Shown here: positions 10,285 to 54,225 of the stretch, in pieces
Layout of the letters: each line of letters opens with the position of its first letter
Numbering within the stretch: the stretch's first letter is position 1
NCBI GenBank assembly: GCA_017461985.1
Contig: JAFTSA010000004.1
Coordinates: forward strand, 262,053 to 326,052
DNA length: 64,000 nucleotides
Reading direction: 5' to 3'
Origin: Clostridia bacterium
GTDB taxonomy: Bacteria; Bacillota; Clostridia; Christensenellales; CAG-917
The notes under the pieces: model-generated
The model's input: the letters and a program-made list of their open reading frames with translations, nothing else
What the model was told of the DNA's origin: nothing
Databases searched by the model: none
Made by a program: the position numbers and the translations under genes

Positions 10285-10575
10285 TTACCTCAAATTATCT
10301 AAGATTGCATTGCCAAGTCCACTGTCTGTTATGGCTATGGCAAGCACTTGGTCGCGATGAACGGCGTTTGAAATTCCGTCCATAACAAATGCAGGGATCT
10401 CACTGCACTTTTTCAGCAGTCTTTCCTTGTATTTGTCCGTTGCGCTTTCATCTATAAGAACTATGACACAAGAGTTCAGTCTTTCAGAGATTTTGTCTTC
10501 GCCGAGCAAAATCCTGCCACTGCGCATTGCAAGTCCAATATACGATTGAATTTTAGAGTTGATTTTTGAGTTCAT
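10285..10575 (-). CDS. L7Ae-family RNA-binding protein YlxQ
   Basis: IGLAMRSGRILLGED matches the YlxQ N-terminus. Start placed at the ATG at 10575 (checked in the DNA). Conserved nusA-ylxR-ylxQ-infB order. Confidence 0.8.
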   Translation of the reverse strand: MNSKINSKIQSYIGLAMRSGRILLGEDKISERLNSCVIVLIDESATDKYKERLLKKCSEIPAFVMDGISNAVHRDQVLAIAITDSGLGNAILDNLR

Positions 10576-10807
10576 CGTAAACTTCCTTTGCAACAGCACC
10601 TTTGAACGCGGCATTGAGTGCGAATTTCTTTATGCAAGCGTCAATGCACTTTTCATTGCGGTGCACGTATGCGCCTCTACCGTCCATCTTTCCGGTTGTG
10701 TCAATTTTCACACCATCACTTGTTTTTACAAGACGGATGAGTTCAGACTTGTCTGCATGTTCCTTGCACACACAGCACTTTCTTGTGTTTTTGGGATTAC
10801 TAGGCAT
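10553..10807 (-). CDS. ylxR: YlxR/RnpM family protein (DUF448)
   Basis: 84 aa. RKCCVCKEHADKSELIRLV and DGRGAYV motifs of DUF448. Lies immediately downstream of nusA. Confidence 0.85.
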   Translation of the reverse strand: MPSNPKNTRKCCVCKEHADKSELIRLVKTSDGVKIDTTGKMDGRGAYVHRNEKCIDACIKKFALNAAFKGAVAKEVYDELKNQL

Positions 10808-12546: not shown

Positions 12547-14130
12547 TTATGACAATCTTTTTGCAAGGACTTTCAACAGTTCCGCCGTGGCATACACGTC
12601 TGCGATTGCGCGGTGCGCGTTTTCGTGAGAAATGTTCAAGTTCTTTGACAAACTGCCAAGGTCAAAACGTTTGAATTCCTTGAGGTGTTCTCTTGCAAGA
12701 AGCAAGGTGTCCACCAAGTCGTTGTCAAATTTGTAGCCCTCTTCTCTTGCATACTTTTCAAGCAAAGGATAATCGTAGCCAGAAATGTTATGACCTACAA
12801 GAACTGCATCTCTTGTAAACTTGAAGAAGTCAGGAAGAACCTCTTCAAATTTGGGTGCAAACTTGACCATTTCGTTTGTGATTGAAGTGAGGTCGGTTAT
12901 GAAATCTGAAATGAGTTCATTGGGTTTGACAAAAGTTTGGAAGACCTCTGTGAGTTTGCCGTTTACCATTTTCACTGCAGCAAGTTCAATTGGCTCAGCA
13001 GTATTGATATATTTGTCGGTTGCCTCAAAGTCAAAGATGACAAAAGTCTTGTCTTTCAAGAACTCAGGCACAACCACTTCACCTGCAAACAAACTGTCTT
13101 GAGAAATGGTGTTGTAAGGTGTCGGGAGCACCTTGTTGTACTTTGCAGGGCAAGGCTTGTTTTGAACCGTTTGAATTGAATCGAATTGGATAGAACACCT
13201 AAAAATGCCGTCAAGGGTGTATGACAATGCTCCGTTGTAAGTGGAGATTGACACGTTGCCAACGCAGATGACTTCTTCCCCTTCATTCAGTGATTTCAGT
13301 GCTTCAACGTCGTTTTGTCTAGGGAAACAAACACATTCAATTTTTGCCGTCGTGTCGTCTATTATGCACCTAAACATAGGCTTCATTTCAGGCTCACGGG
13401 AATTGGGGTCGTCAGGATTGTACTTCTTGTTTTTGAATTCTCTATGTTGAATTCCACTGATTTTTCCACAAAGAACAACGTTTTCAGCAGGATTTTTGAT
13501 GTCACAAATGTAGTTGGGCATTTGATTTATGCCACTGATTTTGCCTCTTGCATACACTTTGTCGCAACCATCGGTTTTGATGAGTCTAAATGATTGTCCT
13601 GTTGTAAAGGTACGCTTAGGCATTAGGTCCTCTGCCTTGATATTTTCAGGGTCAACCACTCTTTCTATGTAGGTGACTTCAACTGTGCCGTTGAAGGATT
13701 CATCAAGATACTCCTTCAATTTCACGTCGGATTCCTTAGATTTCAAAATCAAGTATGTAGGGCTGTCAAATGTTATTTTTACAATGATTTCATTGTCTTC
13801 AACGGTGACAGAAACATTTTCATCACCAAGAAATTTGAAAAGCATTTGCTCATATTTGTTGAAATACTCGTAGATTTTGTTGGTGACAACCGTTTTGTCT
13901 GCATAAGTGCGGATATACGTAACGTTAATGTTGATGCCGGGAAAAATTTCCTCAACAACCTTTTGCACCTCTGCCTTTTTCTTGTCATCATAGAATTTTG
14001 AATCAAAAGCGGAGATGATGAAACGCACGTCAAGGGAGTGCTTTTCTCTATAATAAGTTGCTGAATTGAACTTCAATTCAGGAAAAGCACCATCTGATTT
14101 TGTCAAAAACTCTTCAAAGAACTTTGTCAT
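12547..14130 (-). CDS. PolC-like N-terminal/OB-fold protein fused to a DEDDh 3'-5' exonuclease, with no polymerase or PHP domain
   Basis: 527 aa. ExoI FVIFDFEATD, ExoII LVGHNISGYDYPLL, ExoIII HRAIADVYATAELL. Upstream is an OB-like segment (VVLCGKISGI...IECVCFPRQNDVEALKSLNEGEEVICVGNV). It occupies the polC slot between ispG and rimP. Confidence 0.75.
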   Translation of the reverse strand: MTKFFEEFLTKSDGAFPELKFNSATYYREKHSLDVRFIISAFDSKFYDDKKKAEVQKVVEEIFPGININVTYIRTYADKTVVTNKIYEYFNKYEQMLFKFLGDENVSVTVEDNEIIVKITFDSPTYLILKSKESDVKLKEYLDESFNGTVEVTYIERVVDPENIKAEDLMPKRTFTTGQSFRLIKTDGCDKVYARGKISGINQMPNYICDIKNPAENVVLCGKISGIQHREFKNKKYNPDDPNSREPEMKPMFRCIIDDTTAKIECVCFPRQNDVEALKSLNEGEEVICVGNVSISTYNGALSYTLDGIFRCSIQFDSIQTVQNKPCPAKYNKVLPTPYNTISQDSLFAGEVVVPEFLKDKTFVIFDFEATDKYINTAEPIELAAVKMVNGKLTEVFQTFVKPNELISDFITDLTSITNEMVKFAPKFEEVLPDFFKFTRDAVLVGHNISGYDYPLLEKYAREEGYKFDNDLVDTLLLAREHLKEFKRFDLGSLSKNLNISHENAHRAIADVYATAELLKVLAKRLS

Positions 14131-25066: not shown

Positions 25067-26512
25067 TTAATCCTTAGGTGGCACTTTGAGGTGTATGTCA
25101 AGGGGCTTATCTTTCAGTTGTATCACGGGTATTCCCGTGTATTTTGTTCCGTTGCAGTAGAGTTCACGACAGTCACCCTTTTCAATTTTTAAGTGGTGAT
25201 TTACGCCGAATTCTGTGAAATGCACGTCAACCTCATTGATTTTTCTTGAGAGAAGTGGATTTATGCTCAGCTTGCCATTTGACACAAAAACACCGAGTTT
25301 TATGGTGTTTTGTTGTTGATAATTTGCAAAAGTATTCTTGAAAACGCTCTTTTTTAGAATTATTTTCTTGTTTTGACCACCAAATATAGTGATCATAGCA
25401 TATCTTGATGATAGTGCCGTTGCAAGAAGTTTCATATCCTTTTTGAATAAAGACAGGACAACCTTCTTCCCTGCCAAATTTGTTGAAAATGAAGGCGTGT
25501 ATCTGTTTGTTGCTCTATCCACGTACTTCTTCAAGGCATATGAAAAGGCAAATTCGTCCATATTCAGTTTTGACGATTGACTGCTTACTTCGGTCAAAAA
25601 TGCAGATTTAACTTCATCAGGTGACGAAGCAAAATTTTCATAGTTTTCAAAAATTTCGATGGGAGAGTAAAATTTGACAAAACCCACCAAATCAACAAAT
25701 TTCAGTCCATCGAAAATTTTTGAGGTCAAAGAGCACAAATTTTGCAATACGTCAAAGTAAACAATAGTTGCATAAGTACAATCTTCTCCCCTATGCTTTG
25801 CAGTTAGATGCAAAAACACGTTGTTGTCCTTCAACCCGTTGTAAAACTTGTTTTGCTCATAGTTTTTTGGGTGACGTGCAACTTTCAATGCATATTTGTC
25901 CAATTTCACCAAATTCACTACTCTTTTTGAGATATAGTAGAGTTTTTCTAGATATAGAAACTTTATCATCAATGAAAAGTTGTCGATTTCTGTGTAGGTC
26001 AAGGTGCTGACTTTGTTGAAAATTTCAAAGCAAGTGGCAATCTTTTCCTCAACAAGCAGAAAATCATTATGCTCAAGGAGTGCCCTTGCAACAATTTCAA
26101 TTCGTGCGCCATTTTCAAAAGATGGCATATCTCCAAGTTTTGAGAAATCAAGTTTTTTGAGTTTCTTCAAATCCTTCGTATTGTTTTCTATTTCCGCGAC
26201 AAAGTGTTTCAGTTCAGTTGTTTGACGATGCTTGTTGTCTAAGTGTCGTTTTGCAACAAATTTTGCAAAACCAATGTATCGCACAAACTTTTTTACGGAA
26301 TACTCCTTTTTTCCGTTTTCCTTTGGGAGCTTGTTTGATGATGCAAATTTTTCAAGTTTTTCCTTGAAGGCGTCATCATTAAGTTTTTTAGTGAATGACT
26401 CTCTGTCTTTAGGTTTAAGTGCAAAATAAAGAAACACAAAGAAAATCGTCACCACCGCTGATATTGCATATTCCATATGATGATTGTATCCAAAATACTG
26501 AAAAACAAGCAA
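25067..26512 (-). CDS. Hypothetical protein with one N-terminal TM helix (AT-rich, K-rich)
   Basis: Long ORF with no family motif that I can name with confidence. Start uncertain: TTG at 26512 or ATG at 26476, neither with a clear SD. Confidence 0.55.
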   Translation of the reverse strand: MLVFQYFGYNHHMEYAISAVVTIFFVFLYFALKPKDRESFTKKLNDDAFKEKLEKFASSNKLPKENGKKEYSVKKFVRYIGFAKFVAKRHLDNKHRQTTELKHFVAEIENNTKDLKKLKKLDFSKLGDMPSFENGARIEIVARALLEHNDFLLVEEKIATCFEIFNKVSTLTYTEIDNFSLMIKFLYLEKLYYISKRVVNLVKLDKYALKVARHPKNYEQNKFYNGLKDNNVFLHLTAKHRGEDCTYATIVYFDVLQNLCSLTSKIFDGLKFVDLVGFVKFYSPIEIFENYENFASSPDEVKSAFLTEVSSQSSKLNMDEFAFSYALKKYVDRATNRYTPSFSTNLAGKKVVLSLFKKDMKLLATALSSRYAMITIFGGQNKKIILKKSVFKNTFANYQQQNTIKLGVFVSNGKLSINPLLSRKINEVDVHFTEFGVNHHLKIEKGDCRELYCNGTKYTGIPVIQLKDKPLDIHLKVPPKD

Positions 26513-26630: not shown

Positions 26631-26664
26631 GAAAAAGAAAAACACCACTTCATGCAGTGGTGTT
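26631..26664 (-). terminator. Terminator of rnpB
   Basis: On the minus strand: hairpin AACACCAC UGCAUGAA GUGGUGUU, followed by UUUCUUUUUC. Confidence 0.7.
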
Positions 26665-26670
26665 TTTCAC

Positions 26671-27003
26671 GTGTGCGAGATTAGTCTATAAGCCGAGTTC
26701 TGTCTTGAACGGTCATCTATCTAGGCGGTACGTTGCCGTATCGCTCAAGCGACTTGTGGAGCGGGCGGGCAACCCATATTGCTCCGTGTCTTGCATCGGG
26801 TGGGGTTTACATCGCGCCTCGTCACCGATTTGCGGGTGAGCTCTTACCTCGCCTTTCCATCCTTACCCGAGTGTTCGGGCGGTTTTTTTCTGTTGCACTT
26901 TCCTTAAAGTCGCCTTCACAGGCATTTCACCTGCACCCTTGCCCTGTGATGCTCGGACTTTCCTCACGGTATTACTACCCCGCGACCGTCCGGCTAACTC
27001 GCA
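26671..27003 (-). ncRNA. rnpB: RNase P RNA
   Basis: The minus strand carries the universally conserved P4 strands GAGGAAAGTCCGAGC (26965..26951) and ACAGAACTCGGCTTA (26703..26689). A P1 helix pairs GCGAGTTAG at the 5' end with CTAATCTCGC at the 3' end. It has its own promoter and terminator. The only ORFs here are spurious plus-strand ones. Ends are within about 5 nt. Confidence 0.88.
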
Positions 27004-27086: not shown

Positions 27087-27647
27087 CTATTGTTTTGGCT
27101 CATTATACCATTTGTCGAAATACTTTTGTGGGATGTGAAAATACTCTTTCAACTGTTTTGCTTTTATTCTAGTCAGCTGTCCTTTTTGCAAAAGAAGTTT
27201 TACGCTAAACAAAAGATTGATGTAAACTGACTCGAAATCAACAGGAATATCCAATCCGCTTTTTAAGAGATAATTCAACACGTGATATCCTGTGCCTATA
27301 ATAGCTCCATCTTTAGAATTTACCTTATAAACTACTTCGGACCGCGTATTGTATGCCGCAATAGTAATATATATTTTTTCTATTTCTGATAGCTTTATTT
27401 GAACCTCTTTAGATCTTATGTTTCGTTTTACCAAAAAGATTTGTCCGTCCAAGTCCGCCTCAACGCTGCCAGAACATAGTATAATATTCCAAAAACATAT
27501 CAGCCAAAGAAACACATCGACAATAATGCTTGTCAACAAAGTTTTAGTCGTATGCTCAAATACGGAAAATGTAATGGCAGTAAACACGACAGGAATCAAA
27601 ACTAACAATGCTATCGCACCCGGATGAAAATAAATTCGTTTTTTCAT
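27087..27647 (-). CDS. Hypothetical membrane protein (two N-terminal TM helices plus a soluble C-terminal domain)
   Basis: 186 aa. Hydrophobic segments GAIALLVLIPVVFTAITFSVF and LLTSIIVDVFLWLICFWNIILC. No recognisable motif. Confidence 0.55.
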   Translation of the reverse strand: MKKRIYFHPGAIALLVLIPVVFTAITFSVFEHTTKTLLTSIIVDVFLWLICFWNIILCSGSVEADLDGQIFLVKRNIRSKEVQIKLSEIEKIYITIAAYNTRSEVVYKVNSKDGAIIGTGYHVLNYLLKSGLDIPVDFESVYINLLFSVKLLLQKGQLTRIKAKQLKEYFHIPQKYFDKWYNEPKQ

Positions 27648-27672: not shown

Positions 27673-29361
27673 TTACAAACTTGCCTTGTATCTTTCTGCC
27701 CAGGCTTTCATTTCTTTTGCGTGAGGAATTGCGTGGGATGAATAATCTTTGCCACCGATAAGTCTTGCAACTTCTTCAGTGTCATCTTCAAGAAGGTCAA
27801 GATGGGTGTGGGTTTTGCCATTTTCGGTTGATTTTGCAATGAGGAAATGGTTGTCTGCCATAGCGGCAAGTGAAGGCATATGGGTGACTGCGATGACTTG
27901 ACGTTTTCTTGAAATGTTGCACATTTTTTCAGACACTACTGCTGAGATGTTACCTGAAATGCCTGTGTCGATTTCGTCGAAAATCATTGTGCCGATATGG
28001 TCAATGTCTGCAAGTATATTCTTCAAAGCAAGCATAAATCTTGACATTTCACCGCCAGATATGATTTTTGCAAGAGGTTTCAAGGGTTCACCCACGTTGG
28101 GTGAAATCAAAAATTCAACCTTGTCTGCGCCGTTTGAAGTGCAATCTTCTACTTCAACCGCACTGTCAATCTTCACGGTGAAGGTGCTTCCGCCCATACC
28201 AAGGTCGCCAAGTTCTTTTATAATTGACTTTTCAAATTTGTCCGCAATCTTTCTTCTTGATTCGGTGAGATCTTCGCAGGCAGAGGTCAAGTCCTTGACG
28301 GCTTTTTTCAGTTCATCTTCAAGTTTTGCAACTCTATCCCCAGCGTTTTCAAGACGATCTCTTTCTTCAACGGCCTTTTCGTAGAATTTTGTCAGCGCAT
28401 CAAAACTACCGCCATACTTTCTTTGAAGCATACGGACAAGTTCAAGCCTTTCTTCCACTTGATCTGCGCTATGACGGTCAAAGTCAAGCTCGTCAAGAAT
28501 TGATTTGACTGTGTCTGCCACGTCTATGATTTCTGCTCTAGCATCTTCAAGGCGCTCGTTGAGTCCGTCAATACGATTGTCGTATTGAGAGATCATATTG
28601 AGGGTTGAGATTGTGGTTTTAAGTTCAGGGCTGACTGCGGTGCTATCATATCCATCAAGAAGGTTTTTGGCGTTTGTGAGAGCCTCCAAGATGCGCTCAA
28701 CGTTGCGTATGCGCTTGCGCTTGTCGAGGAGTTCATCTTCCTCGCCTTCTTGCACGTCGCCCTTTTCAATTTCTGCAATTTGATATGCGAGGATATCCAA
28801 TCTGCGGACACGCTCATCTTCATCACCAAATGAAGAAAACTCTCTTTTGAGTGATGTATAGTTTTTGTATGTTTCCTTGACTTCGTCAAGGAGTTTCATA
28901 TGCTTTTCACCGCCAAGACCGTCCAAAAGCCCAACGTGATTATTGGGATTGAGGAGAGATTGGTGCTCGTGTTGACCGTGTATGTCAACAAGGAGTTCGG
29001 TGAGTCCTTTTAGTGTTGAAAGAGTGGTCACTCTGCCGTTGATGCGGCAGGAGTTTTTGCCCTCAACGGTCATCTTTCTGTTGAGGATAAGCACTTCTTC
29101 GTCCTCAATGCCGATTTCGTCAAGATATTCCTTGACGGCAGGTGTGAGATAATCGCTGAATACCGCTTCAACCACAGCATAGTCTGTGCCGTAGCGGATA
29201 AGCGAGCGGTCCGCTCTTTCGCCCAAAACGAAAGACACGGCGTCAATGATGATTGACTTACCTGCGCCGGTTTCACCACTCAAAATATTCAGCCCGCTGC
29301 CAAGTTCAACTTGAAGTTTCTCAATGAGGGCTATGTTTTCAACTGAAAGACTTTGAATCAT
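27673..29361 (-). CDS. recN: DNA repair protein RecN
   Basis: SGETGAGKSIIIDA Walker A, long coiled-coil middle, ISGGEMSRFMLAL signature and IFDEIDTGISG Walker B. Confidence 0.95.
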   Translation of the reverse strand: MIQSLSVENIALIEKLQVELGSGLNILSGETGAGKSIIIDAVSFVLGERADRSLIRYGTDYAVVEAVFSDYLTPAVKEYLDEIGIEDEEVLILNRKMTVEGKNSCRINGRVTTLSTLKGLTELLVDIHGQHEHQSLLNPNNHVGLLDGLGGEKHMKLLDEVKETYKNYTSLKREFSSFGDEDERVRRLDILAYQIAEIEKGDVQEGEEDELLDKRKRIRNVERILEALTNAKNLLDGYDSTAVSPELKTTISTLNMISQYDNRIDGLNERLEDARAEIIDVADTVKSILDELDFDRHSADQVEERLELVRMLQRKYGGSFDALTKFYEKAVEERDRLENAGDRVAKLEDELKKAVKDLTSACEDLTESRRKIADKFEKSIIKELGDLGMGGSTFTVKIDSAVEVEDCTSNGADKVEFLISPNVGEPLKPLAKIISGGEMSRFMLALKNILADIDHIGTMIFDEIDTGISGNISAVVSEKMCNISRKRQVIAVTHMPSLAAMADNHFLIAKSTENGKTHTHLDLLEDDTEEVARLIGGKDYSSHAIPHAKEMKAWAERYKASL

Positions 29362-29816
29362 TATTGCAAAATGTTTTCGAGAGCGTCAATCACTCCATCA
29401 ACGTGGTCAACAGAATCAACAGCCACAAAAATGGTGTTGTCGCCTGCGATTACGCCAAGGATTTCTTCATATTCAAGGCGGTCAATAAGCTCTGCTGCTG
29501 CACTTGCAGCGCCTTGTTCTGTTTTGAGAATCACAAGATTTTCTGCTGAGCGGATTGAAAGCACTGTGTTGCGGAAAATTTTGATAAATTTGTCTGCGGT
29601 TGATGGCTCTTTGGGTTGTTGAGCCACGTACTTGTAGTGTCTGCCGTCATCAGTGAAAGTCTTGATGATGTTCATGTCTTTGATGTCACGGCTCACTGTG
29701 GCTTGTGTCACTGAATAGCCGTCTTCACGAAGACGTGCAACCAATTCTTCTTGTGTGTCGATGTCGTGTTTTGCGATGATTTCAAGAATTTTGAGTTGTC
29801 TTGATGCTCTTGCCAT
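29361..29816 (-). CDS. argR: Arginine repressor
   Basis: RQLKILEII...TQEELVARLREDGYSVTQATVSRDIKD winged-helix block and a C-terminal GVIAGDNTIFV oligomerisation block. ATG at 29816 preceded by GGAGGA. Confidence 0.9.
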   Translation of the reverse strand: MARASRQLKILEIIAKHDIDTQEELVARLREDGYSVTQATVSRDIKDMNIIKTFTDDGRHYKYVAQQPKEPSTADKFIKIFRNTVLSIRSAENLVILKTEQGAASAAAELIDRLEYEEILGVIAGDNTIFVAVDSVDHVDGVIDALENILQ

Positions 29817-29835
29817 TATATCCTCCAAACATAGG

Positions 29836-30621
29836 TCAGCACGTAGTGCCCCATCTGTTCATTTTTTCTAAAAGTTTATTGTAGAAGTCGCGCTTGTCCA
29901 CGTCGACAAATCTTGCGGTTTTAGACGACTTTTTGATTTTTATTGTGTTTGTCACGTTTGCGCAGTTTTCACTGTCTGCAAACACAATTGCCCCCTCATC
30001 GTCTACAGTGATTTCAACTGTACTGTCACCGCTTACAACAAGTGTGCGTGAGTGCAATGAGTGAGGGCAAATCGGGTTGATGACCATGGCGTCAACGTCG
30101 GGTGCAAGCACAGGGCCGCCTGCGGACAATGAATAAGCTGTTGAGCCAGTGGGTGTTGACACGATGATGCCGTCCGCATGATATTTGTCAACAAATTGTC
30201 CGTCAACCGACACTGAAAGTGTGATAGGTCTTGCAGTTGTGCTCTTCACTGTCAAATCGTTGAGAGCAACAAGTGTCATGCCTTCAACTTTAGTTTCAAT
30301 AAGGCTTCTTGTGACTACTTTACCGCACTTGACCGCTTTTGCAATGTCTTCTGCGGTCACTGATGATTCAAATTGTGTCAAAAAACCAACGTTGCCAAGG
30401 TTCACGCCAAGAATTGGCAAGTCAAAAGTGGTTGCGGCAGTGAGCATTGTGCCGTCTCCGCCAAACACCAAAAGGCAATCCGCGCCGGCATGAGCGCTAT
30501 CCGCCTTCGCCTCAACAACATCAAAGCCAAGCCTTTTGAGATTTTCCGTCAACTCAACCTTTCGAGGCTGTGAGGACAGACTTTCTTTTGAAAAAATTGC
30601 CAATTTCATAACATACAGCAT
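29836..30621 (-). CDS. nadK: NAD kinase
   Basis: LVFGGDGTML, ALNDL and STPTGSTAYSLSAGGP motifs. Start is either the ATG at 30621 or the ATG at 30609. Confidence 0.9.
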   Translation of the reverse strand: MLYVMKLAIFSKESLSSQPRKVELTENLKRLGFDVVEAKADSAHAGADCLLVFGGDGTMLTAATTFDLPILGVNLGNVGFLTQFESSVTAEDIAKAVKCGKVVTRSLIETKVEGMTLVALNDLTVKSTTARPITLSVSVDGQFVDKYHADGIIVSTPTGSTAYSLSAGGPVLAPDVDAMVINPICPHSLHSRTLVVSGDSTVEITVDDEGAIVFADSENCANVTNTIKIKKSSKTARFVDVDKRDFYNKLLEKMNRWGTTC

Positions 30622-30742: not shown

Positions 30743-30771
30743 TTGACAAATTGACTTTGTGGCACTATAAT
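30743..30771 (+). promoter_or_regulatory. Consensus sigma-70 promoter driving the small ORF
   Basis: TTGACA (30743..30748), exactly 17 nt, TATAAT (30766..30771). Only 6 nt separate the -10 box from the ATG at 30778. Confidence 0.65.
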
Positions 30772-30777
30772 CAAGGT

Positions 30778-30897
30778 ATGATAAACACTCTTCTTTGCAT
30801 TGATGATTTTACAGTCAGCGTACTGGGCGGTGTGGCTGGACTTGCAGTTGCAGTCATCATCATCGTCGTTTGCATTGTAAAAAAGAAGCGCCACTAA
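30778..30897 (+). CDS. 39-aa hydrophobic peptide with a basic C-terminus (candidate leaderless small membrane protein)
   Basis: My translation: MINTLLCIDDFTVSVLGGVAGLAVAVIIIVVCIVKKKRH. It is below the 60-aa cutoff of the ORF track. One TM helix followed by KKKRH. The perfect promoter puts the start site at or next to the ATG. A terminator hairpin lies downstream. Confidence 0.4.
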   Translation: MINTLLCIDDFTVSVLGGVAGLAVAVIIIVVCIVKKKRH

Positions 30898-30940
30898 TTG
30901 ACGCCTGTTTTATAGTTCTAACTTTCAAAACAACTAAATT

Positions 30941-30980
30941 GCAAACAAAAAAATCAACCAAAGGTTGATTTTCTTTTTTA
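30941..30980. terminator. Bidirectional terminator shared by tlyA (minus) and the small ORF (plus)
   Basis: AAATCAACC AAA GGTTGATTT, flanked by an A-run on the left and TTCTTTTTT on the right. Confidence 0.7.
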
Positions 30981-31691
30981 TTTGCTTTTTTTCAAGTGCA
31001 AAAGATACTCCACGTTTTTGTTTTCATAAAAGATTGGTGAGGTTGTAAGCCCTAAAACATCAAAACCACTTGAAACTGCGTATCCTTTTACTAGGTTGAT
31101 TGCTCTTTGTCTGTCCTTTTCATTTAGGACAATGCCCTTTTTGCTGAGGGCAGACTTTTCAAGTTCAAATTGAGGCTTTATGAGGACAACCGCTTCTCCG
31201 CCCACTTTCAATAATTTGAATATTGAGGGCAAAATAAGGCGAAGTGAAATGAAACTGACGTCACTGCATACAAAATCTTTCAAGGAATCCACAACAAGAT
31301 CTCGTGCATTTTGCTGTATAAAAGTGACTCTACCGTCGTTTAGAATACGCTCGGGCAAATCGCATTCTGCCACGTCAACTGCAAGGACAGAATTGACGTT
31401 TTGACGAAGCATCACGTCGGTGAATCCACCGTTGCTGCAACCTATATCTGCGGTGTCAAATCCTTGAAGATTAAGGTTGAAAGCACGGATTGCTTCAACA
31501 AGTTTGTATGCGCCTTGTGAAGCGTAGCCTTCGTCTTCAATTATCTCAACAACCATACTCTCTTTAACGTCAAAAGACGGCTTCAAGATAACTTTGCCGT
31601 CTAATTTGACTTTGCCTTTCAGAACAAGGTTTTCCGCATAAGTCCTTGAAGGCGTAAGGTTATTTTCAGTGAGATACTTGTCAATCCTCAA
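30978..31691 (-). CDS. tlyA: TlyA-family rRNA (cytidine-2'-O)-methyltransferase (S4 plus FtsJ domains)
   Basis: LRIDKYLTENNLTPSRTYAENLVLKGKVKLDG (S4 domain) and DIGCSNGGFTDVML SAM motif. Start uncertain. The track start at 31796 is a TTG 116 nt inside the upstream gene. An in-frame TTG at 31691 sits just before the S4 domain. Confidence 0.85.
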   Translation of the reverse strand: MRIDKYLTENNLTPSRTYAENLVLKGKVKLDGKVILKPSFDVKESMVVEIIEDEGYASQGAYKLVEAIRAFNLNLQGFDTADIGCSNGGFTDVMLRQNVNSVLAVDVAECDLPERILNDGRVTFIQQNARDLVVDSLKDFVCSDVSFISLRLILPSIFKLLKVGGEAVVLIKPQFELEKSALSKKGIVLNEKDRQRAINLVKGYAVSSGFDVLGLTTSPIFYENKNVEYLLHLKKSK

Positions 31692-32382
31692 CGTTTTGCT
31701 TTTCCTTTTCTTCTTCGAATTTCTTTTGTTTTTCTTTTTGATGTTTGCGTCTACGTCTTTCTTCAGGATTGAAGATTGCAATAATTCGTGCCACAAACAT
31801 TATGAACTCTTTTGAGTTGGATATAGCAATGTTTTTAAGGAACGCCTTGCCACCAATAGTCAGTGCTGAAACAAGGGCTGATATGCCAATTGTCACCCAT
31901 TGTTGCCACTTTTGGTCCATACCAACCACAAGTTTAACAACAATTGCTGCCGAGCAAGCACCGGAAATTATGCCGAAAATATCTCCTATGACGTCATTGC
32001 AGACATTGGACACTTTCTCGTTGTTTTTGACAAGCCATAGCGCTGTCTTTGCACCATATACCTTGCGTGACGCCATTGACACAAAGGGAGTAATATCGCA
32101 GGAAGTTGATGCAACGCCGATGCCGTCAAACAAAATACTGCACAAAATCAGGAAGAACAACAGCATTATTGTGACGATGATATGTTCACTTGATGCCGTC
32201 AGTTCGCTAAGAAAACTGATAAACGCAGAAATAAATAAAGAAACAACCGTAATTTTCACGCTCCAAAGGTTGCGCTTCTTTTTCGGTTGCTTTTTCTGTT
32301 TCTTTTCGTCTTGAGAAATAGGACGAGTTTCTTCGTCCTTGTTGATGCCTATACTACTGTGGCCGTCCTCTTGTTTTTCCAT
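31681..32382 (-). CDS. Four-TM membrane protein, OapA-like (OLE-associated protein candidate; possibly DUF21-like)
   Basis: ATG at 32382 preceded by AGGAG. Four hydrophobic segments (ITVVSLFISAFISFL, IIVTIMLLFFLILCSILF, IGDIFGIISGACSAAIVV, VTIGISALVSALTIGG) with K/E-rich tails. Immediately 3' of the large RNA candidate. The track's upstream TTG extension to 32484 runs into the RNA and is discarded. Confidence 0.6.
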   Translation of the reverse strand: MEKQEDGHSSIGINKDEETRPISQDEKKQKKQPKKKRNLWSVKITVVSLFISAFISFLSELTASSEHIIVTIMLLFFLILCSILFDGIGVASTSCDITPFVSMASRKVYGAKTALWLVKNNEKVSNVCNDVIGDIFGIISGACSAAIVVKLVVGMDQKWQQWVTIGISALVSALTIGGKAFLKNIAISNSKEFIMFVARIIAIFNPEERRRRKHQKEKQKKFEEEKEKQNVED

Positions 32383-32402
32383 ATTTCTCCTAAATTGATT
32401 GA

Positions 32403-32992
32403 AATGGTGGCAACAATTCGAGTAAACCTTGCGCCATAGGTTCGGTAGGTTTTCCCGAAGCAACAACTTGTCGTCGCCGACCAAGACGTTTCCGATTACG
32501 TTGCAACCAGCGTGGTTTCCCTACGCTTCACCGAATCGCCACTAAGTGCACACTATAATCCCCGAACTGCTTACGAGAACAGTCTAGAAGATTTCCTTGG
32601 CAACATCACTCCGACCTAGTCCTGTTTTGCAGTCAAGATTTCAAAAGGCCATCGGCAAAGTCCGTCGGCCGACGAACGATAACCGTTCCTTTATCCCTGC
32701 GAGACCACTCAAGGCAGGCTACACTGTCCACAGCGCACGAGCCACCGCATGACAGGTTTAATCCCAGTCAGTAGACCATTCATCTAGAATATGTCCACCG
32801 ATTTGGGTCTCCACGACGATTGGGTCGCCCTTCGCATGCCGTTGCGACACGCCCAAAAGCCTTAACTCCCAGCAACAGCCCAAGTTTGGGCAACAAAAGC
32901 CATCACCAGAAACTTCATCGATATGCCCTTTGGCGATATTTTACCCCCGCCTTCGGTTCGGATAATGCTGACTAGAATACTGCGCCACCATT
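32403..32992 (-). ncRNA. Large structured non-coding RNA candidate, OLE-like (about 590 nt)
   Basis: No ORF of 60 aa or more in any frame across 32485..33147, although the DNA is more G+C-rich than its flanks. It has its own consensus promoter. The 5' AAUGGUGGC (32992..32984) is complementary to the 3' GCCACCAUU (32411..32403). Many GC-rich hairpins. The context (4-TM gene, tlyA, nadK, argR, recN) matches published OLE loci. Not checked against a covariance model. Confidence 0.55.
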
Positions 32993-32999
32993 CAACTAT

Positions 33000-33027
33000 A
33001 TTATACATAATAATGAAAAAATGTCAA
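33000..33027 (-). promoter_or_regulatory. Predicted promoter of the large RNA / 4-TM protein transcript
   Basis: On the minus strand: TTGACA (33027..33022; a second overlapping TTGACA at 33034..33029), 16-nt spacer, TATAAT (33005..33000). Confidence 0.6.
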
Positions 33028-33060
33028 ATGTCAACTGAAGATGAGTCCTTGTCCGCAAAT

Positions 33061-33090
33061 AAAAGCCAAAAACCGCCAAAATAGGCGGTT
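33061..33090 (-). terminator. Terminator after recG
   Basis: On the minus strand: AACCGCC UAUUUU GGCGGUU, followed by UUUGGCUUUU. Confidence 0.65.
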
Positions 33091-33147
33091 AGATGGAGTG
33101 AAAACCAAAGCAATTTAATAGAATTAAATTATTTTTTGAATTTTGCG

Positions 33148-35235
33148 TCAACTGTTGAGTGTCACAGACTTCAATTTGTTTTCAAAATCTGAATAATCCG
33201 CACCAAACAAATCACTCATTATGGTGGTCAACCCGTCATATCTAGAGTCTTTTGACATTTCTTTGGCTTTCATAAGCACTTTGACGTTTGAGGGGAGATT
33301 GAAATATGGTGAAAGTGTGACGCCTTTCTGTTTTGTGCCAAGGAAATCACCTGCCCCACGCATTTCAAGGTCTTTTTCAGCAAGCATAAGGCCATCGTCA
33401 ATGTTTTCCATAGCAAGCAGTCTTTCAAGCGCAGTTGCCCCTGCAGTTTTAACGTGAAGGAAACAATATGCTTGACTGCCGTCTCTTCCCACTCTTCCTC
33501 GAAGTTGATGGAGTGATGCAAGGCCGAATCTGTCAGCATTGAGCACGGCGATAATGCTTGCTTTTGTGTCGATGCCAACTTCAACCAAAGATGTGGCAAT
33601 GAGCACTTGAGTTTTGCCAGCGGAAAACTCTTCCATGGCTGTTCTCTTTTCGGTGGCTGAAAGCTTTCCGTGAAGAATTGATACGTTTAGATTGCTGAAT
33701 TTGCTTGAATACAAGGAATAGAATTTGTCAACTGAGTAAATGTCCAGCCCATCACTATCCTTGATTGTAGGACAAACGATAAAGGCTTGTTTATGGTGCT
33801 CCCTACACTCATCGGCAATATACGAAACCAAATCATCAAGTTTATGTTCAAGGACTATTTTTGTTGATATCGAAGTCTTCGCGCTCTCACGTTTTGTTAT
33901 TGATGACACGTCAATATCATCATAAAGCGTCAGTGCAAGAGTGCGAGGTATAGGTGTTGCTGTCAGTGTCAAAACGTCAACTGCACCTTTATTTTCAAGT
34001 TCTGCCCTGCAAGAAACGCCAAATTTGTGTTGCTCATCAATGACTGCAAGAGAAAGATTGTTATACTCCACGTCTTTTCCTACAAGTGAGTGTGTACCGA
34101 AGATAACTGAAATTTCTCCTGCTTTCAGTCCGTTGAGTATCTCATGTCTTTCCGCTGACTTTGTAGATGATGTCAGCACAGCAACCGAGATTGACAACTT
34201 CTCAGCAATTTTCTTATATGCGGAATATTGCTGTATTGCAAGGATTTCGGTGGGACACATATATGCGGATAGTTTTCCGCACATTGATGCGTAAGTCAAA
34301 GCAAAATATGCAACAACCGACTTTCCTGACCCAACATCACCGCTGACAATACGTGACATATTGACTGAGGAACACAGATCCTTTTCGATTGCATCCATTG
34401 CCGTGGATTGTGAGGGGGTAATAGGGAAAGAAAGCACATTTTCAATGTCAAGTTTTACATTATTTTGGGTTTTATAGAATACTTTTCTTTCTTTATCGGC
34501 GGATATTTTGGATTTGTGGTAGGTTTTTAGGCCCATTGCAAAATCTACTGCTGACAATGTTTCTATGGCTTCTCTGCACTCTTTTTCGTCTTTTGGGAAG
34601 TGAATTTTGTATAGTGTGTCAAAAAGCGCATATTGACTATCAGTTAGGTTTTCGCCCTTGATTATTCCCTTTTCTGAAGCCAATTCAATGGGCGTCTCGT
34701 TGCCTTCGCACACACCTTCAACCGTTGGCTTATATCCAAGTGAATTGAAGCATTCGTAGACCAACTTTTTGAAGGTGCGTTGGCCTATTTCATTTCTTAA
34801 AGGATAAACCGTGTAAATACCTTTGGTGAGAAGTTTGAGCTTGTCAACTGGCTCTATTGTAGGATTTATAAGGAGAGATACTCCCCCGTCTGTGATTTTT
34901 GAAAAAAGTCTAAACTTTCTGCCTATTTCAAACTCAACTTTCAAATAAGGTTGGTTGTAGAAGATTGCATTGAAATAAACAGGCTTTGTTGAAACGGAGT
35001 CCTTGAAGGTGACGGTAAAAGCTTTTTTACGACTCGAAGTTTCTCTAAGGCGGACAACTTCTCCTTCAAATAAATAAAATTGCCCTTCTTCTGCTATGAT
35101 AACAGAAGTGGGCAATCCTAAATCAACGTATTTAGACGGGAAAAAGGACAACAAATTGCCGACGCTGGCAATTCCAAGGGCACAAAGCTTCTTTTCAAGT
35201 TGTGCGCCGATGCCTTTAATCTCAGTCAGTTTCAT
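33148..35235 (-). CDS. recG: ATP-dependent DNA helicase RecG
   Basis: Wedge/OB N-terminus, SGDVGSGKSVVA Walker A, VIDEQHKFG (DEQH) and QLRGRVGR motif VI. Start set to the ATG at 35235 (MKLTEIKGIG), just after the yloV stop. Confidence 0.95.
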   Translation of the reverse strand: MKLTEIKGIGAQLEKKLCALGIASVGNLLSFFPSKYVDLGLPTSVIIAEEGQFYLFEGEVVRLRETSSRKKAFTVTFKDSVSTKPVYFNAIFYNQPYLKVEFEIGRKFRLFSKITDGGVSLLINPTIEPVDKLKLLTKGIYTVYPLRNEIGQRTFKKLVYECFNSLGYKPTVEGVCEGNETPIELASEKGIIKGENLTDSQYALFDTLYKIHFPKDEKECREAIETLSAVDFAMGLKTYHKSKISADKERKVFYKTQNNVKLDIENVLSFPITPSQSTAMDAIEKDLCSSVNMSRIVSGDVGSGKSVVAYFALTYASMCGKLSAYMCPTEILAIQQYSAYKKIAEKLSISVAVLTSSTKSAERHEILNGLKAGEISVIFGTHSLVGKDVEYNNLSLAVIDEQHKFGVSCRAELENKGAVDVLTLTATPIPRTLALTLYDDIDVSSITKRESAKTSISTKIVLEHKLDDLVSYIADECREHHKQAFIVCPTIKDSDGLDIYSVDKFYSLYSSKFSNLNVSILHGKLSATEKRTAMEEFSAGKTQVLIATSLVEVGIDTKASIIAVLNADRFGLASLHQLRGRVGRDGSQAYCFLHVKTAGATALERLLAMENIDDGLMLAEKDLEMRGAGDFLGTKQKGVTLSPYFNLPSNVKVLMKAKEMSKDSRYDGLTTIMSDLFGADYSDFENKLKSVTLNS

Positions 35236-35236
35236 T

Positions 35237-36907
35237 TTATTCTGCTGAAAGAATATAGTAATAGTGGGGTTGACCGCCATAGTATGCGGCAACTTCAAGG
35301 TCGGGATACTCAGCTTCGATGACTTCGGCAACATGCATTGCTTCGTTTTCAGCGACGCCTTCGCCGTAGTACAAAGTGACCATATCGCAATCCGTACAAA
35401 TTTTTCTCACGCTGTTGAGGGTTGCTTCGGTGATTGAAGTGCTCTTTGCAATAATCTTCTTGTTGCTGATTGCAATGATGTCGCCTTCCTTCACCGAGAA
35501 ACCGTTCATACGAGTGTTGCGCACTGCGTGGGTGACTTCAACAGTTTTGATACCACCGAATGAAGCCTTCATGTTTTCATAGTTTTCTTCTGCAGTGCAG
35601 TCAGGACTAAATGCAAGTGCAGCAGAAATGCCCTCAGGGGTGCAGGTTGTAGGAATGACGAATACGTTGACGTCTGCAAGTTCCTTGGCTTGTTCTGCGG
35701 CAAAGATAATGTTGGGATTGTTGGGAAGAACGTAAACGTTCTTGCCACCGGCAGAATTGATTGCGCCAAGAATGTCATATACGCTAGGATTCATTGTTTG
35801 GCCGCCTTCCACAACGACATCAACCATCAGATCCTTGAAGATTGCGCTGAGACCGTCACCGGCACAAATAGAAACCATTGCAAAGTCCTTTTCAGGTTCT
35901 CTCTTGGTCTTCTTCTTTGAGTCGTTTTCGCCCTTGATTTTGCGGTTTTGTTCCACCATATTTTCAATCTTGACGCCGTCAAGCTCACCGAGTTTCAGTG
36001 CGGCTTTAAGTGCTTGATCGGGGTGATTGGTGTGGACGTGGGTTTTGACAAGTTCAAGATCGCCAATGACGAGGACGCAGTCGCCGATTGTCATAAGATA
36101 ATCACGGAATTTGTCTATATTGCTGAGAGTTGTTGTTGAATTAAGGTGTGTGATGAAGAATTCCGTGCAATATTGGAAGGTGATGTTGTCATAGTCGTTG
36201 ACAAGGATATCTTCCTCAGTGGCTTCAGTGCCATTTGCATTGACGATGAGGGCTGCAGGACGCACTGCGTCGTCCTTGATCATCTTGATTTCTTCACCAG
36301 TGAGGACAGCATAAAAACCTTCAAAAATGGTCATAAGACCACGGCCGCCTGCATCGACCACTCCTGCTTTTGCAAGGACGGGAAGCATTTCGGGAGTTTT
36401 TGCAAGGATTTGTTCACCTGCTTCAATGACTTGTGACAGGAACTTGACAAAGTCAACGTTTCTGCCCTTTGCAAATTTGACTGCATTTTCACTGGCAACT
36501 CTGATGACGGTGAGGATTGTGCCTTCCTTAGGCTTTGTCACTGCGCCGTAAGCAATCTCAGTGCCCTTCTTCATTGCTTCAGCAAAATCCTTTGCAGTCA
36601 GTTCAGTCTTGTTGTCAAGAGCAACTGCAAAGCCTTTGAAGATTTGTGAAAGGATGACGCCACTGTTTCCGCGTGCGCCTTTGAGTGCTCCCTTTGAAAA
36701 TGCAAGAGCGATTTTGTCAAGCTCGTTGGTGTCTGCAAGACCCACTTCACGCATTGCGGTTGAAATGGTCAGAGACATATTTGTGCCTGTATCTCCGTCA
36801 GGAACGGGAAAAACGTTCAATTCGTCGATAAGTGCACGATTGAGCTCTAATGCTTTAACTCCCCCAGCAAGCATTTCTTTGAATGTTGTGCCGTTTATAC
36901 TGTTCAT
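35237..36907 (-). CDS. DAK2 domain fusion protein YloV
   Basis: N-terminal DAK2 text (LNVFPVPDGDTGTNM, RGNSGVILSQ) plus the YloV C-terminal domain. Conserved asp23-yloV-recG order. Confidence 0.9.
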   Translation of the reverse strand: MNSINGTTFKEMLAGGVKALELNRALIDELNVFPVPDGDTGTNMSLTISTAMREVGLADTNELDKIALAFSKGALKGARGNSGVILSQIFKGFAVALDNKTELTAKDFAEAMKKGTEIAYGAVTKPKEGTILTVIRVASENAVKFAKGRNVDFVKFLSQVIEAGEQILAKTPEMLPVLAKAGVVDAGGRGLMTIFEGFYAVLTGEEIKMIKDDAVRPAALIVNANGTEATEEDILVNDYDNITFQYCTEFFITHLNSTTTLSNIDKFRDYLMTIGDCVLVIGDLELVKTHVHTNHPDQALKAALKLGELDGVKIENMVEQNRKIKGENDSKKKTKREPEKDFAMVSICAGDGLSAIFKDLMVDVVVEGGQTMNPSVYDILGAINSAGGKNVYVLPNNPNIIFAAEQAKELADVNVFVIPTTCTPEGISAALAFSPDCTAEENYENMKASFGGIKTVEVTHAVRNTRMNGFSVKEGDIIAISNKKIIAKSTSITEATLNSVRKICTDCDMVTLYYGEGVAENEAMHVAEVIEAEYPDLEVAAYYGGQPHYYYILSAE

Positions 36908-52820: not shown

Positions 52821-52947
52821 CTTGGTTATATTCTACCATATGTAGTGCAAAAACTCAATTTTTTTGCAAAAAAACAAGAAAACTATCTTGAAAAATTATA
52901 TTAACTGTGTTAATATATTATCAATTCACGGATGGAGGAGTTTTTTT

Positions 52948-54225
52948 ATGGAAAAAAACACCATTTTTGACGAGGAAATCATCTTCTTCGACGCCGAAAT
53001 CATGGACGACGATGATGATGCTCCTGTTGGCACTCTTGTAGTTAGACCTGAAGCCCCCACAACTGAAGCAACCACTGACGATACAGCAGACCAAGAGTCT
53101 GTTGCAGATGAACCCGTGGCAGAGGCAGCACCTATTGTCGATGAAGCACCTGCTCCCGCAGTCGATGAAGTTATCCCTGCTCCCATTGCAGAAGAAAAGG
53201 TTGCACCTCAACCTGCTCCTAAGAAGGCAAAAGCGCCCAAAGCAGAAGCCCCCGCAGAAGAAAAACCCGTCCACGTGAACACAAGCAAAAACGTCCTCGG
53301 TGACAGTTTTGGTCAAGGATCGATGGATATGTCATACGACTATAAGATTGATCTCGCCCCAACCCCTCAACCCGAGCCCAAGAAGAAAGCCCCCGCAAAG
53401 CCCAAAACTGCTCCTGTCAAAAAGGAAGTGACCGAGGCAGATATTTGGGGTACAGCATCAATTGCTCCCAAAAAGAAAGCAACACCTGCCCCCGAAGCGG
53501 TTGAAGAACCTGCCCCCAAGAAAGCCCCCAAGGCAGCACCTACACCTAAAAAAGCAGTGAAGGAAGTTGAACCCGAAGCCGAAAAACCCGCGCCCAAGAA
53601 AGCTGCTCCCCAAAAAGCCAAGGCAGAGCCTGAAGTCCAAGTGGCTGAAGAAACTCCTGTCGAAACCGTCGCCCCTGCGCACGCCAAAAAGACACGCAAA
53701 AAGGCCGACCCCAAACCCGATGCCAACGATGTTGAGATAAAAAATACAAATGAGGAGGAAAACAAAGTGGCAAAAGAAACAACAAAAGCAGCAGCAACCC
53801 CCGAACAAATTCTCGTAGAAGGTACTGGTCAATACCATGGCAAGTTTGTCATCAAAAAGACAGACAAAGGTAACTTTGTTTACAAACTCTTTGCATATGG
53901 CAACAAGTGCGTTGCAATCGGTGCACAAGCATATGAAAGCTTGGGTGGTGTCAAAGGTGGCATTGCAAGCGTCTCAAGAATCGCAGCAACTTCACCCATC
54001 GAAAACCAAACCCTCAAATCATACGAAACACTCAAGTTCCCTAAATGGGAAATCTATGCAGACAAGAAAGGTGAATTCCGTCTCCGTCTTTATGCAGCAA
54101 ACGGCAACCTCGTTGCAACAACCAATGATGGCTATCTCAGCGTAAGCGCAGCAAAGAAAGGCATCGAATCAGTTGCACGTGCAGCAGAAGGTGCAGCAAT
54201 CGTCAGAAACGACAATCTCTGGTAA
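52948..54225 (+). CDS. Protein with an acidic N-terminus, a long A/P/K-rich (histone-H1-like) region and two C-terminal YegP/DUF1508 domains
   Basis: ATG at 52948 preceded by GGAGGAG. KKAPAKPK/APKKAPKAAPTPKK repeats. Two DUF1508-like units: GKFVIKKTDKGNFVYKLFAYGNKCVAIGAQAYESLGGVKGGIASV and WEIYADKKGEFRLRLYAANGNLVATTNDGYLSVSAAKKGIESV. Confidence 0.7.
   Translation: MEKNTIFDEEIIFFDAEIMDDDDDAPVGTLVVRPEAPTTEATTDDTADQESVADEPVAEAAPIVDEAPAPAVDEVIPAPIAEEKVAPQPAPKKAKAPKAEAPAEEKPVHVNTSKNVLGDSFGQGSMDMSYDYKIDLAPTPQPEPKKKAPAKPKTAPVKKEVTEADIWGTASIAPKKKATPAPEAVEEPAPKKAPKAAPTPKKAVKEVEPEAEKPAPKKAAPQKAKAEPEVQVAEETPVETVAPAHAKKTRKKADPKPDANDVEIKNTNEEENKVAKETTKAAATPEQILVEGTGQYHGKFVIKKTDKGNFVYKLFAYGNKCVAIGAQAYESLGGVKGGIASVSRIAATSPIENQTLKSYETLKFPKWEIYADKKGEFRLRLYAANGNLVATTNDGYLSVSAAKKGIESVARAAEGAAIVRNDNLW

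Follow-up and report, generated by a model that had tools for sequence, protein, structure and literature searches.

The minus strand of the 64-kb window (the whole stretch of DNA that was analysed) almost certainly encodes, at 32992..32403, a full-length member of the OLE (ornate, large, extremophilic) RNAs; the host is an uncultured gut bacterium of the Clostridia. This RNA family has been known since 2006, and a curated Rfam model for it exists. When the whole window was scanned with Rfam 15 at gathering thresholds, this model (RF01071, gathering score 50) matched 33004..32391 on the minus strand at 425.3 bits (E = 1.6e-121). The match is not truncated, and its 614 nt cover positions 1 to 616 of the 616 in the model, with nine model positions deleted and seven nucleotides inserted. 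The only other match to reach its gathering threshold anywhere in the window is an RNase P RNA (27001..26672). An earlier note on this DNA, made from the letters alone, had proposed an OLE homologue at this place and named RF01071 as the decisive test, and the full-length match bears the proposal out.

The RNA proper, taken from the first to the last base of the closing helix P1 (32403..32992, minus strand), is about 590 nt long, and both this length and its many strictly conserved nucleotides are as expected for OLE RNAs, which measure about 600 nt. Comparison of the cmscan alignment with the window sequence gives identity at 228 of the 249 highly conserved (upper-case) consensus nucleotides (92%), and 135 of the 157 consensus pairs retained in the window are canonical. 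The region is also richer in G+C than the spacers, as had been remarked before, with fractions of 0.50-0.52 across 32400-33000 versus 0.34-0.40 in the adjoining spacer and 0.432 in the whole window. Nothing argues against membership of the OLE family; the locus is an ordinary full-length copy of an already described RNA, with no departure from the published picture.

A search of species-representative genomes with the downstream protein (OapA) yielded 20 homologous loci, all of them in metagenome-assembled genomes. Of these, 17 carry the label Clostridia, Clostridiales, Christensenellales or Candidatus Limadaptatus and are gut-derived, and three carry the label Bacteroidaceae. From the gut habitat, the host is presumed to be anaerobic; we count it among the anaerobic or extremophilic Bacillota in which OLE RNAs are expected. 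An OLE match lies directly upstream of the oapA-type gene in 19 of the 20 genomes (165-440 bits), where two of the 19 matches are cut by contig ends and the twentieth locus offers just 164 nt of upstream sequence. At the best locus (CALABJ010000013.1) the OapA protein is 99% identical and the OLE RNA agrees with that of the window at 610 of 614 bases (99.3%), leaving four differences. Therefore, the source organism, or a very close relative of it, is already in public collections. The discovery value of the locus is accordingly small, in that it adds one more copy to a known family and a 99.3% identical copy is public. It does illustrate that a large structured RNA can be recognized by a first-stage reader from sequence alone.

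Promoter, transcription unit and the downstream gene

The gene upstream of ole is recG (35334..33148, minus strand; identified with Pfam and NCBIfam). The terminator assigned to it in the earlier note, at 33061..33090 on the minus strand, is recovered as a terminator-like pattern, composed of a 7-bp stem with five G-C pairs (33090..33071) followed by the T-tract TTTGGCTTTT. Downstream of it, the near-consensus promoter that had also been pointed out is a sigma-70/SigA-type element (33000..33027, minus strand) that matches the consensus at 12 of 12 positions, with a -35 TTGACA (33027..33022), a 16-nt spacer and a -10 TATAAT (33005..33000). The promoter pattern by itself is weak evidence, given that the region holds four such sites where shuffled sequence would hold 3.1. 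In all 16 homologous loci compared, however, TTGAC and TATAAT are unchanged and lie 16-17 nt apart, within flanks that are otherwise unalignable, and in these 16 loci TATAAT ends approximately 7-13 nt before P1. There is thus good comparative evidence that a dedicated ole promoter is real, and a strictly conserved ole promoter is hereby documented in uncultured gut Clostridia. The spacing alone would place the transcription start at about 32993/32992, the first base of P1. For comparison, the proximal promoter of Halalkalibacterium (Bacillus) halodurans raises OLE expression more than 100-fold (Wallace et al. 2012, PMC3413148).

The junction between the RNA and the coding region is short. No terminator-like site was found on the minus strand between P1 and the start of oapA (32403-32382), the GGAG ribosome-binding site of oapA (32387..32390, minus strand) begins 12 nt after the last P1 base, and the oapA ATG stands at 32382, 20 nt after P1. 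The oapA gene itself (31681..32382, minus strand) is followed by tlyA (30978..31691, minus strand), which encodes a member of the rRNA 2'-O-methyltransferase family and probably starts at a TTG at 31691, a choice of start that would make it overlap the end of oapA by 11 nt. Beyond tlyA, a terminator-like hairpin (30886..30906, minus strand), identified by pattern match, is the probable end of an ole-oapA-tlyA transcription unit. The unit is therefore likely to consist of the promoter, ole, oapA and tlyA, with a start, a 3' end and a processing that are predicted. Judged from the promoter spacing and the missing terminator, one transcript from approximately 32993 would run through ole, oapA and probably tlyA, and the stable RNA of about 590 nt would either be trimmed from this transcript or remain attached to it. 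A discrete, stable OLE RNA with this start site and 3' end is a prediction for the source organism.

This arrangement could also be read to mean that the region is just a long 5' leader that acts in cis on the oapA-tlyA mRNA, for instance as a riboswitch or attenuator, and has no function as an RNA of its own. The promoter directly upstream, the terminator-free junction and a ribosome-binding site so close to P1 are all features of a leader, and they do suggest that the RNA and the mRNA are made as one transcript. However, the sequence matches the OLE model over its full length at 425 bits, and no expression platform is apparent, given that terminator-like sites are lacking between P1 and oapA and that no riboswitch model matches. 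Moreover, the OLE RNA of H. halodurans, which is likewise driven by a proximal promoter and precedes oap, accumulates as a single, very stable and abundant RNA that acts with OapA (PMC3413148). We therefore consider it very unlikely that the region is only a leader, and prefer an OLE RNA that is co-transcribed with its partner gene. A more elaborate proposal would treat the ole-oapA-tlyA genes of this clade as a compact unit with an invariant promoter, detached from the isoprenoid genes that accompany ole elsewhere, in which the folding of P1 or the processing of the RNA might control OapA translation directly because the oapA ribosome-binding site follows P1 so closely. We give this proposal little credence; if true, a coupling between P1 and OapA translation would be a form of regulation not described for OLE.

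The protein encoded downstream has 233 amino acids and is the OLE-associated membrane protein OapA, as indicated by its domain match, its DxxxD motif, its predicted fold and its linkage to ole. The sole domain matched is the Pfam CNNM domain, and this match is weak (30.1 bits, cut-off 28.4); CBS and CorC domains are lacking. Residues 130-134 read DVIGD, a DxxxD motif of which D130 and D134 do not vary among 33 aligned homologues. The hydrophobic core is bordered by conserved basic clusters, KKKR ahead of the first helix and EERRR behind the last one. In the AlphaFold2 model (mean pLDDT 72), four long helices occupy residues 39-63, 65-94, 121-154 and 158-188, and three of these four spans pass a strict hydropathy threshold. 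The product is thus predicted to be a small integral membrane protein that spans the membrane about four times and has basic clusters on either side of the spans. The best fold matches of the model in the PDB are 7m1t and 7m1u, both of the archaeal CNNM protein MtCorB (probability 1.00, TM 0.45-0.47 normalized to query length, approximately 140 columns, E 0.02-0.12), and we regard this predicted resemblance as weak but specific. A sequence search against PDB chains gave chance matches only, so that CorB was reached by comparison of folds, and a search of NCBIfam, which has no model naming OapA, gave no match. Among 957 relatives, few have a name in their source record, and these are called DUF21 or CorB proteins.

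The same traits are given for the OapA protein of H. halodurans, which matches CNNM weakly, carries the distinctive DxxxD motif and finds its best structural match in 7M1U (Fernando and Breaker 2024, PMC11332333), and for this reason the downstream gene is called oapA. Compared with the MpfA/CorB/CNNM Mg2+ transporters, which are relatives of OapA, the protein resembles them in its weak match to the CNNM domain and in superposing best on MtCorB. It differs from them in its length of only 233 amino acids, in its lack of CBS and CorC domains and in its DxxxD motif, which sets OapA apart and is not present in CNNM domains (PMC11332333).

Covariation, the closing helix and internal hairpins

The earlier note had suggested that homologous intergenic regions be collected and examined for covariation. 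Our alignment for this purpose contains 18 essentially full-length copies, one of which lacks the first 17 model positions, and it represents a single clade in which mean column identity is 83% and many pairs are invariant. The structure evaluated was the Rfam consensus structure, supplemented by the closing helix that the note had proposed, as projected onto this alignment. Across the 18 homologues, 86.4% of cells are paired, versus 38-43% after the 3' partners have been shifted by one to three columns. Changes on both sides occur at 58 pairs and in 224 cells, where shuffling gives means of 41.6 and 85.9, and the observed covariation score was reached in none of 500 shuffles; shuffling may exaggerate significance when the sequences are related, whereas the shifted-partner control is not so affected. 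The consensus secondary structure is thus maintained by compensatory changes among the relatives. For the 590-nt RNA, the minimum-free-energy fold reaches no more than a modest z-score of -2.1. The case for structure is therefore built on the covariance model and on covariation, and not on folding energy.

The closing helix deserves separate mention. Its 5' strand is the 9-nt segment AAUGGUGGC (32992..32984, minus strand), and this is the exact reverse complement of the 3' strand GCCACCAUU (32411..32403, minus strand). Among the 18 homologues, the helix is 93% paired, and in four of its nine pairs both partners have changed. One column pair is C-G in nine copies, G-C in seven and A-U in one, and another is U-A in 12 and C-G in four. 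The prediction that one helix joins the two ends of the whole element is therefore upheld. The Rfam consensus structure leaves this helix unannotated, with both ends marked as unpaired. The consensus letters at the two ends are complementary to each other (GUGGU near the 5' end and ACCAC near the 3' end). Relative to these letters, the helix in the window carries a compensatory swap of U-A to C-G. The clade alignment thus supplies clean covariation for a helix that is absent from the Rfam consensus structure.

This closing helix is the published P1 stem. The identification follows from the mapping of H. halodurans OLE 5' ends to the start of P1, near the start site of the proximal promoter (PMC3413148). 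The pairing of P1 with the 3' end is demonstrated here.

Five internal hairpins had been singled out in the earlier note, and these fared unevenly. The complementary segments of all five are present, but only CGUC-GGCC-GACG (32674..32663) fits the fold that covariation supports. Three of its four pairs are consensus pairs, 96% of its cells are paired, and it covaries, with CG, UA, GC and AU all occurring in one column pair. The remaining four do not fit. All five pairs of GCCCA/UGGGC conflict with the supported fold, and its 88% pairing in homologues is uninformative because the segments are invariant. Likewise, all five pairs conflict in GAACG/CGUUC (49% paired in homologues) and in GUCGC/GCGAC (68% paired). 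The segments CCUGC/GCAGG consist of conserved residues without covariation and do not form a consensus helix.

Several loops and hairpins can be related to named parts of other OLE RNAs. The palindromic GGCC loop (32667..32670, minus strand) at the tip of a long stem, published as L9/L9.3, is invariant in the 18 homologues, and its stem covaries. In cryo-EM dimers, two OLE molecules contact each other through this loop in a symmetric kissing interaction (Kretsch et al. 2025, PMC12286853; Lyon and Breaker 2025, PMC12265935), a role that is assigned to the loop in the window by homology only. The cmscan alignment also places a hairpin, AAGCG-U-AGG-GAAA-CCACGCUG, with a GNRA tetraloop and a single bulged U at 32508..32528 (minus strand). 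This hairpin (helix 16) shows changes on both sides at six of its eight pairs among the 18 homologues. It corresponds to P13, the primary binding site for OapB, and it keeps the OapB-binding determinants (GNRA and bulge) that have been defined on OLE (Yang et al. 2021, PMC7936274); OapB presumably binds at this site in the source organism as well. In the naming of PMC7936274, the GGUCG-GCGA-CGAC hairpin with its GCGA tetraloop (32470..32482, minus strand) is P14.1, the weak second OapB site. Its stem (helix 18) is only 49% paired across the clade. Two conserved loops are complementary, UGCC (within 32893..32884) and GGCA (within 32844..32835), and may be the counterparts of the P5.1-P6.1 loop-loop contacts that have been reported. 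The segments GCAGU...CUAG (32983..32968) and CUAG-ACUGU (32590..32578), which were considered as a candidate for a published long-range stem, are both invariant in the clade, which makes covariation uninformative about their pairing.

Imperfect pairing raises the question of whether the locus might be a decaying, non-functional remnant of an OLE RNA. Such a view could draw on the 22 of 157 consensus pairs that are non-canonical in the window and on the poor pairing of the P14.1-like stem. However, this stem pairs poorly throughout the clade, and its poor pairing is therefore a feature of the lineage rather than a sign of decay in this copy. The match is full-length with 228 of the 249 conserved positions intact, promoter and RNA are conserved with compensatory changes across at least 18 species-level genomes, and an intact oapA follows. 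We consider decay extremely unlikely, and retain the reading of an intact OLE RNA.

The earlier note had also allowed for a different large RNA in the place of OLE, and ROOL, GOLLD, HEARO, raiA or an undescribed class would be candidates. A permissive scan of 32200..33200 (E up to 10) gave no match to ROOL, GOLLD, HEARO, raiA or any riboswitch, and no Rfam family other than OLE exceeded 17 bits there; the residual matches (17 bits or less) are at chance level and all lie outside the RNA or on the opposite strand. With every other family below 18 bits, and with OLE matching end to end and 92% of its conserved nucleotides identical, the probability that another structured RNA occupies this slot is negligible. 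The absence of open reading frames of 60 amino acids or more on either strand between 32485 and 33147 was confirmed, the longest in the RNA region on either strand being five of 41-53 amino acids. The notion that these encode one or more small proteins and that RNA structure is incidental can be dismissed as practically without weight, because variation among the homologues is concentrated in paired positions and is compensatory, because their length differences are indels of irregular length in hairpin tips, as expected from selection on RNA structure and not on a reading frame, and because none of these frames is needed to explain the conservation.

Genomic neighbourhood and relation to known OLE systems

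The window comes from a housekeeping part of a Clostridia chromosome, with rpsB-tsf-pyrH-frr-uppS-cdsA-dxr-rseP-ispG and then rimP-nusA-infB-rbfA-truB-ribF, followed by a block with RNase P RNA, recN-argR-nadK, tlyA-oapA-ole and recG-fakA-asp23, and by rpe-rsgA-rlmN-rsmB-fmt-def-priA-coaBC-rpoZ-gmk, with ligA and pcrA beyond. The order downstream of ole that the earlier note had read as the OLE context, oapA and then tlyA, the NAD kinase gene, argR and recN, is confirmed, with nadK at 30621..29836, argR at 29828..29361 and recN at 29361..27673 (all minus strand); these three complete the typical ole gene cluster. Both tlyA and recN are members of the classical ole cluster. The genes argR and nadF are associated with ole (PMC10898510), as are isoprenoid, DNA-repair and ribosome-related genes more generally (PMC10898510; PMC12265935).

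Neither oapB nor oapC was recognized in the 64-kb window when selected open reading frames were compared with Pfam and part of them also with NCBIfam. A single candidate emerged, an open reading frame (10285..10614) inside the nusA-infB operon with a weak resemblance to L7Ae/YlxQ, which was rejected as oapC and is, by its position, the counterpart of ylxQ. The oapB and oapC genes, which encode a KOW-motif protein and a member of the YbxF family, need not be linked to ole. From published profiling, both would be expected in the complete genome and mpfA would be expected to be missing.

OLE RNAs are known as abundant and stable transcripts that are localized to the membrane via OapA and confer stress tolerance, and OapA binds the RNA cooperatively with two proteins per RNA. 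To our knowledge, a biochemical activity has been established for no member of the family. By homology to H. halodurans and to the two structures solved by cryo-EM from Clostridium, the OLE RNA of the window would dimerize, with the GGCC kissing loop among the contacts. OapA dimers would bind the RNA and hold it at or across the cell membrane, and further proteins would be recruited, with OapB, for example, at the GNRA-plus-bulge hairpin. The resulting particle would help the cell to cope with stresses, among them alcohols, cold, excess Mg2+ and poor carbon sources. Binding, membrane localization, dimer formation and stress tolerance are all transferred here from other species. OLE is biologically intriguing and may span the membrane, and the present locus gives no new handle on its function.

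Among known systems, the OLE RNA of H. halodurans C-125 offers the closest comparison of parts. It has about 600 nt and the same conserved blocks and helices, including P1, and it possesses its own proximal promoter with a start at the foot of P1 (PMC3413148). There too, ole is directly followed by oapA and has argR and the NAD kinase gene close by (PMC10898510), and a GNRA-plus-bulge P13 hairpin is present, which in that species binds OapB (PMC7936274). The hosts differ, in that the window derives from an uncultured gut Clostridia lineage and not from an alkaliphilic relative of Bacillus. The upstream neighbours differ as well, because ole in the window is preceded by recG with its own terminator, whereas the H. 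halodurans cluster, in the 2006 description of OLE, reportedly has isoprenoid and exonuclease genes upstream of ole.

The OLE RNAs of Clostridium acetobutylicum and C. botulinum, whose dimers have been visualized by cryo-EM (Kretsch et al. 2025; Wang et al. 2025), belong to the same family and likewise come from Clostridia. The palindromic GGCC loop that bridges these dimers also occurs, without variation, in the clade of the window. More broadly, approximately 2,800 representatives of the family have been catalogued in Bacillota (Fernando and Breaker 2024, PMC11332333). These include OLE variants 1 and 2 (TANB77, RF39), which resemble the present case in coming from uncultured gut Bacillota known only from metagenome assemblies. 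However, the variants have shortened or missing P7, P8 and P9 and often lack the OapB site (PMC11332333). Since all 616 model positions are covered with only nine deletions, and since the GNRA-plus-bulge hairpin is kept, the OLE RNA of the window is, by its alignment, of the full-length type and not a reduced variant.

A small peptide gene between tlyA and nadK

In the spacer between tlyA and nadK, the stretch 30743..30972 (plus strand) carries a gene for a hydrophobic peptide of 39 amino acids (30778..30897, plus strand; MINTLLCIDDFTVSVLGGVAGLAVAVIIIVVCIVKKKRH), which is convergent with the minus-strand tlyA. A single membrane helix followed by a basic tail is predicted for the peptide. Its gene is preceded by a promoter that matches TTGACA-17-TATAAT at 12 of 12 positions (30743..30771, plus strand), and is followed by a terminator-like hairpin (30950..30972, plus strand). 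Because only 7 nucleotides separate the end of the -10 box from the ATG of the peptide, the resulting mRNA may be leaderless. Counterparts were found by tblastn at the equivalent site in five of the related-genome loci, with identities of 100% in the closest locus (L001), 65% in L003, 47% in L002, 38% in L004 and 27% in L015. Searches of Pfam and NCBIfam with the ORFs that overlap the gene produced no match. It may represent either a small membrane protein or a peptide of the type I toxin-like kind.

OapA length and the labelling of related loci

Many OapA relatives of this clade are 260-390 amino acids long in the homologue alignment, and the OapA protein of the window has 233. The larger size of these relatives is due to long, low-complexity, charged extensions at the N- and C-termini, both of which are short in the window protein. 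What is conserved across the aligned homologues is the membrane core together with clusters of basic residues.

Three of the related loci (L004, L008 and L015) exhibit a Clostridia-type ole-oapA arrangement, yet their records are named 'uncultured Bacteroidaceae bacterium'. These names probably reflect a binning or labelling error of the assemblies, which agrees with the published remark that OLE matches outside Bacillota resemble contamination or transfer (PMC11332333).

RNase P RNA and a YlxQ-like protein

A full-length class A bacterial RNase P RNA (RF00010, 245.4 bits) is encoded at 26672..27001 on the minus strand and is followed by a strong terminator-like hairpin (26668..26637, minus strand). 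The gene is flanked by minus-strand ORFs of 481 amino acids (25067..26512) and 186 amino acids (27087..27647), neither of which has a match in Pfam or NCBIfam. In one related locus (L013), oapA and the RNase P RNA gene are only ~1.5 kb apart, on opposite strands.

Judged by its position between nusA and infB, an ORF of 109 amino acids (10285..10614, minus strand) is the ylxQ counterpart; its similarity to L7Ae/YlxQ-family RNA-binding proteins is weak (30 bits, under the cut-offs). This protein family (YbxF) also includes OapC, one of the components of the OLE particle.

ORFs with partial domain matches

The polC gene usually resides between ispG and rimP-nusA. The sole ORF at this site (12547..14130, minus strand; 527 amino acids) combines an OB fold with a DEDD exonuclease domain, the latter corresponding to residues 419-588 of the 1445 in PolC; the polymerase part is absent, and the gap between the ORF and rimP is only 187 nucleotides. 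The product could be a genuine exonuclease-only protein; alternatively, polC could have been split, or the assembly could be at fault here. Elsewhere, an ORF of 453 amino acids (52864..54225, plus strand), whose neighbours lie on the opposite strand, is recognisable only in its C-terminal domain of the DUF1508 / HVO_2922 family (residues 394-447).
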